From Escherichia coli (GTDB lineage: Bacteria > Pseudomonadota > Gammaproteobacteria > Enterobacterales > Enterobacteriaceae), in NCBI RefSeq assembly GCF_001677475.2, contig NZ_CP015229.1: a stretch of 64,000 nt of DNA. One strand, written 5' to 3'. Below the pieces are notes generated by a model. The model was not told the DNA's origin. It was given only the letters and a program-made list of their open reading frames with translations, and searched no databases. Shown piece after piece: positions 37,210-38,846 of this stretch. Within the stretch, counting starts at the first letter, position 1. Each line of letters begins with the position of its first letter. The translations under genes were made by a program, and so were the position numbers.

Positions 37210-37557
37210 TTATTCAGCGTCCGGCTCTTCAGACTTGTATTTAGCGGCAGTTTCTTTGATCAGCTGCTGCAGTTCGCCACGCTGATACATTTCGATCACG
37301 ATATCACAACCGCCGACCAGCTCGCCGTCAACCCACAGTTGCGGGAAGGTCGGCCAGTTAGCATATTTCGGCAGTTCCGCACGAATGTCCGGATTCTGCA
37401 GGATATCAACATAGGCAAAACGTTCGCCACATGCGGCAAGCGCCTGGACTGCCTGGGCAGAGAAACCGCAGCTCGGCAGTTTCGGTGAACCTTTCATGTA
37501 CAGCAGGATCGGGTTTTCAGCAATCTGGCGTTGGATTTTTTCGATAGTGGTGCTCAT
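37210..37557 (-). CDS. grxD: Monothiol glutaredoxin Grx4
   Basis: 115 aa; CGFS active site. Confidence 0.92.
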   Translation of the reverse strand: MSTTIEKIQRQIAENPILLYMKGSPKLPSCGFSAQAVQALAACGERFAYVDILQNPDIRAELPKYANWPTFPQLWVDGELVGGCDIVIEMYQRGELQQLIKETAAKYKSEEPDAE

Positions 37558-37891
37558 TGTCTTGCTTCCTCAAACTTCTTTACGGCAGTAATCTGACATT
37601 GTAGCGGGTCAGTGCGGCATCGGGAAATAACATTTTCATCACGCTTTTGCTATTTTATCCCTTTGCTCTAATTGTTGCATTTCAAATATTCGTTTCTTCC
37701 CTGACGCAAGGCAAACTGGCGTATTTATGACCATTTTTAGCTTTCACTGCTGCATTTTTTTGCGCTCGCCGACGAAACGTATTTTTTAACAATAAAAGCT
37801 ATTAACTTTCTCTTCTTCTATGCATTAGAATTATCAAGTTTTGTAAATCAGACGCAGGCATGATAGACCTGCCTTAACAGAGGGACGCTCA

Positions 37892-38719
37892 GTGGCGCGG
37901 ATAAACCGTATTTCGATCACGCTCTGTGCTTTACTTTTTACCACCCTGCCTTTAACGCCTATGGCCCATGCTTCAAAGCAAGCCAGGGAGAGTTCTGCTA
38001 CTACTCATATCACCAAAAAAGCAGATAAAAAGAAAAGCACGGCAACCACCAAAAAGACCCAGAAAGCCAGCCAGAAAACAGCGAAAAAAGCCGCCAGTAA
38101 AAGTACGATCAAAAGCAAAACCGCTTCTTCCGTTAAAAAATCTTCCATTACCGCTTCTAAAAACGCCAAAACTCGCAGCAAACACGCCGTCAATAAAACG
38201 GCCTCAGCCAACTTTACCGAAAAGTGTACCAAACGTAAGGGCTATAAATCGCATTGTGTGAAAGTCAAAAATGCCGCGTCAGGAACCCTTGCCGACGCGC
38301 ACAAAGCGAAGGTGCAAAAAGCCACGAAAGTGGCAATGAATAAACTGATGCAGCAAATTGGTAAGCCATATCGTTGGGGCGGCAGCTCACCGCGTACCGG
38401 TTTTGATTGCAGCGGCCTGGTTTATTACGCTTATAAAGATTTGGTGAAAATTCGTATTCCGCGTACGGCGAATGAAATGTATCACCTGCGAGATGCAGCG
38501 CCAATCGAACGTAGTGAACTGAAAAACGGCGACCTGGTCTTTTTCCGTACTCAGGGACGCGGTACAGCCGATCATGTCGGCGTATATGTCGGCAACGGCA
38601 AATTTATTCAGTCACCGCGTACGGGTCAGGAAATTCAAATCACTTCTCTCAGTGAAGACTACTGGCAGCGCCACTATGTTGGCGCTCGCCGGGTAATGAC
38701 CCCAAAAACACTTCGCTAA
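37892..38719 (+). CDS. mepH: NlpC/P60-family peptidoglycan endopeptidase
   Basis: 275-aa ORF from GTG; signal peptide, Lys/Ser/Thr/Ala-rich low-complexity linker, C-terminal NlpC/P60 Cys-His domain (DCSGLV). Confidence 0.85.
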   Translation: MARINRISITLCALLFTTLPLTPMAHASKQARESSATTHITKKADKKKSTATTKKTQKASQKTAKKAASKSTIKSKTASSVKKSSITASKNAKTRSKHAVNKTASANFTEKCTKRKGYKSHCVKVKNAASGTLADAHKAKVQKATKVAMNKLMQQIGKPYRWGGSSPRTGFDCSGLVYYAYKDLVKIRIPRTANEMYHLRDAAPIERSELKNGDLVFFRTQGRGTADHVGVYVGNGKFIQSPRTGQEIQITSLSEDYWQRHYVGARRVMTPKTLR

Positions 38720-38846
38720 AACTTTACCCTGTTGTTACGGCAACAGGGTAAGTTCATCTTTTGTCTCACCTTTTAATTTGCTACCCTATCCATACGCACA
38801 ATAAGGCTATTGTACGTATGCAAATTAATAATAAAGGAGAGTAGCA

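Follow-up and report, generated by a model that had tools for sequence, protein, structure and literature searches.

The Lys/Ser/Thr/Ala-rich linker of the Escherichia coli endopeptidase MepH is conserved in composition but not in sequence

The mepH locus

We analyzed a 64-kb stretch of the Escherichia coli chromosome from contig NZ_CP015229.1 (the whole stretch is called the window below), in which the genes of concern here are grxD, mepH and sodB. A reading of these letters made without database searches, the sequence-only reading, had flagged the interval 38009-38207 as a basic low-complexity linker within mepH, the gene for the NlpC/P60 endopeptidase MepH. The interval corresponds to codons 40-105 (38009 is the first base and 38206 the last) plus one base. 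Comparison across genera showed that the composition of this linker is conserved and that its sequence and length are not.

The mepH (ydhO) coding sequence (CDS) spans 37892..38719 on the plus strand, starts with GTG and encodes the 275-residue long allele of the protein, as indicated by the open reading frame (ORF), the boundaries set by the Prokaryotic Genome Annotation Pipeline (PGAP) and a Pfam NLPC_P60 match. In the RefSeq locus NZ_CP026755.1, which is 99.8% identical in DNA, PGAP annotates a CDS of identical boundaries as 'peptidoglycan DD-endopeptidase MepH', and the protein is 99% identical to RefSeq MepH entries. The gene order is grxD-mepH-sodB, with grxD at 37210-37557 on the minus strand and sodB running from 38847 on the plus strand. 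Near-identity to annotated MepH together with this neighbourhood places the gene in the MepH orthologue group, and the sequence-only reading had thus named the gene correctly, the Pfam match, the PGAP name and the synteny all agreeing. MepH acts in the periplasm as a DD-endopeptidase, is redundantly essential with MepS and MepM, and undergoes degradation by Prc, whether NlpI takes part or not (PMC8996183, PMC11789061). Every reference annotation already includes mepH together with its low-complexity region, and the feature is of a familiar kind.

A genome search found the mepH locus in 5424 of 5426 E. coli genomes. Among complete genomes, loss of intact mepH was seen in NZ_CP128950.1 (TUM2805, 4.09 Mb), where just the final 25% of the 1.2-kb query finds a match, and in NZ_CP007394.1 (ST2747, locus L013), where the gene is an annotated pseudogene without its N-terminus.

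Architecture of the MepH protein

Residues 1-27 (MARINRISITLCALLFTTLPLTPMAHA; 37892..37972, plus strand) form a signal peptide with A-H-A, a signal peptidase I site, at its end. The signal peptide is 27 residues long in 103 of 103 homologues, S28 is invariant, and residues 28-271 have been purified as the mature protein (bioRxiv 10.1101/2021.02.12.430937). Direct reading of the sequence shows no canonical lipobox. The mature protein begins with a semi-conserved motif, S-x-Q-A-R ... H, at residues 28-39 (37973..38008, plus strand), which we recognized from its identity among cross-genus orthologues (S28 1.00, Q30 0.95, A31 0.90, R32 0.79, H39 0.89). It is followed by the linker itself, residues 40-105 (38009..38206, plus strand), a cationic K/S/T/A-rich, low-complexity and predicted disordered segment delimited by its composition, entropy, low model confidence and indels. 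With the signal peptide at 1-27 and the mature protein starting at the invariant S28, the linker does lie between signal peptide and catalytic domain, where the sequence-only reading had put it.

Between the linker and the catalytic domain lies a beta-hairpin with two cysteines (residues 108-126, TEKCTxRKGxKxxCVK; 38213..38269, plus strand), the strands of which (108-113 and 121-126) appear in both AlphaFold2 models described below. C112 and C122 are invariant and likely form a disulfide in the periplasm; natural alleles exist without C112 (P0020) or without the entire hairpin (P0037). The NlpC/P60 catalytic domain, preceded by a helix at 133-153, occupies residues 157-267 (38360..38692, plus strand) and matches Pfam PF00877 (MEROPS C40) over profile positions 1-105 of 105, with a score of 125.9 bits (cut-off 23). 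An alignment of 91 sequences with identity down to ~31% shows D172-C173-S174-G175 and H228 to be invariant. Q240 is invariant among Enterobacteriaceae orthologues, and it appears to hold the position expected of the third triad residue.

A Pfam search gave no domain match for residues 28-131, and among LysM, SPOR, SH3b, PG_binding and OmpA-like families none matched the pre-catalytic region at E ≤ 0.1. A Presenilin match overlapping the linker was sub-threshold and was discarded as a low-complexity artefact. NCBIfam yielded sub-threshold matches to other NlpC/P60 families only, with no MepH-specific model matched, and homologues among solved structures match only from about residue 106-158 onward, so that none covers residues 40-105.

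Composition and predicted disorder of the linker

The peptide that the sequence-only reading had quoted (57 residues, 41-97) is letter-exact and contains 19 K, 1 R, 11 S, 10 T and 9 A, with a single acidic residue (D+E). K, S, T and A together make up 49 of the 57 positions (86%; binomial tail 7e-22 relative to ~25% expected), the net charge is +19, and the Shannon entropy is 2.60 bits as compared to 4.15 for residues 132-275. For comparison we took all 16,480 sliding 57-residue windows from the 58 ORFs of at least 150 residues in the 64 kb. Windows within 0.2 bit of the linker entropy, or with a net charge of +12 or more, occurred in the mepH ORF only, and the linker is therefore the lowest-complexity and most basic segment of the 64 kb. 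These values bear out the description of the segment as K/S/T/A-rich, highly basic and of low complexity. The accompanying word 'repetitive' holds for composition only, because Tandem Repeats Finder (TRF) reported no tandem array in the linker (score ≥30) and a search for direct repeats found just two short two-copy families.

The segment had also been called probably disordered, and the structure predictions agree. An AlphaFold2 run with 67 close orthologues gave a poor model overall (mean predicted local distance difference test score, pLDDT, 48.9) with residues 32-107 as coil at pLDDT 26-30. A second run, with 91 sequences down to ~31% identity, had the catalytic domain at pLDDT 88-98 and the hairpin at 59-79, and showed no secondary structure for residues 30-105 (pLDDT 45-55), so that a predicted fold for the segment is absent. 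In a charge-hydropathy analysis residues 40-105 fall far on the disordered side (<H> 0.367 vs boundary 0.522), and hydrophobic residues make up 8% of the linker. By entropy, scarcity of order-promoting residues, predicted coil and low model confidence, residues 40-105 are best described as a predicted disordered low-complexity region.

Conservation of composition between species

A protein search returned 120 clusters, 84 of them cross-genus (from Citrobacter, Salmonella, Kosakonia, Enterobacter, Leclercia, Yokenella and others). Among these 84 the linker ranges from 30 to 84 residues with 20 distinct lengths, and gaps occur in 105 of the 114 alignment columns. The linkers have an identity of 0.40 to that of the window, as compared to 0.87 over residues 132-275 and 0.78 over the signal peptide. 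The sequence-only reading had proposed an alignment of orthologues as a check for indels, and indels were indeed found; strong positional conservation without them, which would have counted against a disordered linker, was not seen (40% identity, 105 of 114 columns gapped). Over the same 84 clusters the composition varies little (K+R 0.31±0.02, D+E 0.02±0.01, S+T+A 0.51±0.06, hydrophobic residues 0.06), with a net charge of +18.3±2.4 and a length of 63±7.

More distant relatives were obtained by searching 1.84 billion cluster representatives exhaustively. The full-length ones (44-68% identical), for example those of Affinibrenneria salicis, Rouxiella sp., a Neisseriaceae metagenome-assembled genome (MAG) and Basilea psittacipulmonis, have pre-catalytic regions that are unalignable, rich in R/P/H/N/Q and of net charge +15 to +33. 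Since these relatives use other residues, and with them other codons, and are still cationic, it is charge and not A-rich DNA that is kept. The conserved properties are thus positive charge, polarity and approximate length, and neither the sequence nor A-rich DNA as such. Two betaproteobacterial proteins, P0219 (the Neisseriaceae MAG) and P0243 (Basilea psittacipulmonis), have K/T/S/A-rich pre-catalytic regions close in composition to the E. coli linker, e.g., KKTQKTATVKKNTTKKTAKKSTT.

Length variation within E. coli

Length variation of the linker, which the sequence-only reading had raised as a possibility, exists within E. coli as well as between genera, but it is modest and not repeat-driven. 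The common polymorphism is a 12-bp indel encoding KASQ at 38059-38070, within a site (38059..38077, plus strand) that holds CCAGAAA copies at 38059-38065 and 38071-38077. The indel has eight equivalent placements, reflecting the 7-bp flanking repeat, an arrangement typical of slippage. The long allele (275 residues, linker of 66) is found in the window, AR_0077, and ST131 and O26 examples, and the short allele (271 residues, linker of 62) in K-12, BL21 and O157. Among 5424 complete genomes ~1878 carry the long and 3546 the short form (~35:65), as called by identity band; the ranked matches show a clean break between 98.5% over 199 bases and 93.5% over 187 bases. Because E. albertii (P0004) has KASQ, the long form is probably the ancestral one. 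A length difference of four residues in mepH is thus a common polymorphism and should not be taken as sequencing error.

Larger changes are rare. In-frame deletions of 10-61 codons, all within or adjoining the linker, were found in P0010, P0011, P0014-P0016, P0019, P0020 and P0037, all of them singletons or near-singletons. The six deletion alleles for which DNA was recovered are single deletions with junction microhomology of 9, 5, 5, 3, 2 and 1 nt. The 30-bp in-frame deletion of P0010 (locus L005) maps exactly between two copies of the 9-nt direct repeat ACCGCTTCT (38120-38128 and 38150-38158, within 38120..38158, plus strand). Coverage of the linker is at least 80% in 5423 of the 5424 complete genomes, and in the exception mepH is a pseudogene. 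Two dominant lengths and the near-absence of large deletions in this set indicate that length is constrained, and larger length changes seem to be selected against.

Linker DNA and spurious reading frames

The coding strand of the linker DNA is 45% A and 12% T, with AAA in 18 of 20 Lys codons and six A-runs of 5-6 nt in 199 bp, the longest being A6; the sole KKK is written AAA-AAG-AAA, so that a potential A9 is interrupted. For a stop codon, T is required on the plus strand and A on the minus strand, and because this DNA is A-rich and T-poor its alternative frames remain free of stops. The sequence-only reading had attributed spurious ORFs on both strands to the segment, and three are present: a K/R/P-rich +1-frame ORF of 97 residues within the A-rich DNA (37968..38261, plus strand), a 70-residue ORF antisense to the A-rich, T-poor strand (37973..38185, minus strand) and a Phe/Leu-rich ORF of 75 residues antisense to the AAA-rich codons (38005..38232, minus strand).

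The +1-frame ORF was found in databases only as a fusion to MepH through frameshifts (P0013, P0025, P0036, P0069). One such frameshift is a rare A6-to-A7 change in the A6 run at 38135..38140 (plus strand), located by aligning loci L011 and L012 to the window. In gene calls on the A7 allele the +1 ORF, which starts with the ATG at 37968, is joined to the catalytic domain; the product is P0036, a 246-residue 'putative exported hydrolase' with 101 member sequences. The A7 allele occurs in public draft or read-derived assemblies (at least 39 collection blocks), and none of the 5348 complete RefSeq genomes that gave a match carries it. In P0007, P0013, P0025 and P0069, part of the linker (window 38015-38170) is read in the +1 frame before the original frame is restored. 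These proteins imply two compensating frameshifts at A-runs, which may be sequencing errors; their +1-frame stretches are K/R/P-rich and thus still basic and of low complexity, which fits the compositional nature of the segment. The linker in this way accounts for annotation artefacts, namely the spurious ORFs and the frameshift-fused 'exported hydrolase' entries.

Flanking features

Between mepH and sodB, directly 3' of the mepH stop, there is an intrinsic-terminator-like hairpin (38723..38762, plus strand) with 13 pairs (TTTACCCTGTTG...CAACAGGGTAAG) and a T-rich tail. For mepH there is a promoter-like site at 37802-37831. Some RefSeq genomes have an annotated 50-residue 'hypothetical protein', WP_001299740.1, which by homology to locus L014:31-183 corresponds to ~37630-37782 on the minus strand of the window. 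It was rejected as a linker gene, as its location is the upstream grxD-mepH spacer, outside the linker.

Interpretation of the linker

We lean, by a little better than even chances, to the reading that the linker is a flexible, non-specific electrostatic tether and spacer selected for its composition. It would join the N-terminus of the secreted protein to the two-cysteine hairpin and the NlpC/P60 domain, and selection would act on bulk properties, not on exact sequence: some 60-70 residues, ~31% K+R, a charge near +18 and almost no acidic or hydrophobic residues. A cationic linker of this sort would hold the soluble, non-lipidated MepH at or close to the anionic peptidoglycan and envelope and would extend the reach of the catalytic domain, in analogy to the wall-binding modules or disordered regions that adjoin the catalytic parts of other cell-wall enzymes. 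The underlying DNA, AAA-rich and poor in T, changes through in-frame indels of small size that fall between short direct repeats, with stop-free alternative frames as a by-product. An interaction with envelope or peptidoglycan, which the sequence-only reading had suggested, would agree with the conserved net charge. We favour a tether because charge is conserved in relatives that use different residues, and because MepH has no folded wall-binding domain, while MepS is a lipoprotein and MepM carries a LysM domain (bioRxiv 10.1101/2021.02.12.430937). There is also precedent in the extracytoplasmic disordered regions of Bacillus subtilis PBP1 and RsgI, which act via composition and not sequence and were proposed to contact peptidoglycan non-specifically (PMC9732909).

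Several points weigh against the tether. The catalytic domain is basic too (24 K+R vs 12 D+E), which may make the linker dispensable for electrostatic attraction. Natural alleles with a linker of 30 residues, or with 61 residues including the hairpin removed, indicate that the full linker is not strictly required for a translatable protein. In the literature that we searched on MepH, NlpI, Prc and lysine-rich or disordered periplasmic peptidoglycan proteins we found no mention of the MepH linker. Finally, lipobox-bearing relatives tended to have short, near-neutral regions and non-lipoprotein relatives long, cationic ones, but only as a trend (Mann-Whitney p = 0.07 for net charge and 0.15 per residue), and as the comparison used crude regular-expression classes and non-independent sequences, it was not used as evidence.

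Two of the other explanations we regard as unlikely. The linker could act as a docking or degron region for NlpI-Prc that sets MepH turnover, either by adaptor recruitment or as an unstructured entry point for the protease. NlpI-Prc acts on MepH both in vivo and in vitro (PMC8996183, PMC11789061), the disordered N-terminus of MepS binds NlpI and its deletion abolishes binding (PMC11211486), and the semi-conserved motif at 28-39 adjoins the linker. However, docking of MepS uses the conserved hydrophobic residues L24 and F31 (PMC11211486), whereas the MepH linker is 6-8% hydrophobic, and a large part of MepH proteolysis is NlpI-independent (PMC11789061). No conserved hydrophobic position of the kind used by MepS exists in residues 40-105 among the orthologues, and conservation of composition only fits non-specific contacts better than templated folding. 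Moreover, Prc, a tail-specific protease, works from the C-terminus, and the linker is N-terminal. At a similarly low level of probability we place the view that the linker is a passive spacer, a neutral low-complexity expansion from slippage-prone A-rich DNA that needs only to keep an open frame. An unconserved, indel-rich sequence, indels at short direct repeats, the doubly frameshifted P0013 and P0069 that are still basic and of low complexity, and the existence of natural deletion alleles would all be expected of such a spacer. Drift of this kind does not readily explain why length, net charge and the scarcity of acidic residues differ so little from genus to genus, why charge is kept in distant relatives with different residues and codons, or why deletions are singletons or near-singletons when 5423 of 5424 complete genomes retain at least 80% coverage; tight conservation of charge and length together with rare deletions instead points to purifying selection on bulk properties.

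To a third explanation, that mepH is a contingency or phase-variable locus switching through A-runs and short repeats, we give almost no credence, and it is largely refuted. The ingredients that suggest it are the six A-runs of 5-6 nt in 199 bp, the recurrence of the A6-to-A7 allele (P0036, at least 39 collection blocks) and the polymorphic 12-bp indel. But there is no tandem array and no run beyond A6, the KKK codons break the potential A9, the frameshift allele is found in 0 of 5348 complete genomes, and the indel has just two common states; MepH is, besides, periplasmic and not surface-exposed.

The electrostatic tether may be extended to a bolder proposal, which we hold only tentatively and consider rather doubtful: that the linker is a composition-encoded targeting module which replaces a lipid anchor or folded wall-binding domain and steers the endopeptidase to the sacculus or to the pores of its meshwork, and which is shared, possibly by convergence, by non-lipoprotein NlpC/P60 enzymes from Enterobacterales to Betaproteobacteria. 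If so, it would be a counterpart, in a Gram-negative hydrolase, of the gap-probing disordered regions of PBP1 and RsgI. MepH is one of three redundantly essential cutters of cross-links for E. coli wall growth, and how this soluble enzyme reaches its substrate and is held in check is only partly understood; should the linker be a targeting or regulatory element, that question would become testable.

Comparison with known systems

The closest known system is MepH (YdhO) of E. coli K-12 itself; the gene is one and the same, and the two proteins have signal peptide, linker, hairpin and catalytic domain in common. The window allele (275 residues) differs from the K-12 protein (271 residues) by four extra linker residues, KASQ. 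The paralogue MepS (Spr) is likewise an NlpC/P60 DD-endopeptidase and NlpI-Prc substrate with a disordered segment ahead of its catalytic domain. Unlike MepH, MepS is a lipoprotein (title of PDB 2k1g), and its disordered region of ~36 residues uses conserved hydrophobic positions and becomes folded when it binds; the MepH linker, roughly double that length, is polycationic with almost no hydrophobic residues and lacks positional conservation.

The Gram-positive NlpC/P60 hydrolases LytE/LytF (with LysM repeats), Listeria p60 and Bacillus cereus CwpFM/EntFM, which bear wall-binding modules or low-complexity linkers at the N-terminus, have the same layout as MepH, a signal peptide followed by a non-catalytic N-terminal region and a C-terminal NlpC/P60 domain. 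The NCBIfam p60, RipC and EntFM models align weakly over the low-complexity part of MepH, with scores far below their curated cut-offs. CwpFM is reported to have disordered extensions (PMC7551459). These proteins differ from MepH in having folded binding domains (LysM, SH3b), whereas residues 28-131 of MepH match no Pfam domain.

The disordered regions of PBP1 and RsgI (Brunet et al. 2022, PMC9732909) come from B. subtilis, belong to a synthase and an anti-sigma factor and are C-terminal, in all of which they are unlike the MepH linker. Their function was established by scrambling and swaps, whereas the likeness of MepH is seen in sequence-level hallmarks. That likeness lies in extracytoplasmic disorder and in a compositional bias conserved without conserved sequence; the regions of PBP1 and RsgI were proposed to make non-specific, multivalent contacts with peptidoglycan.

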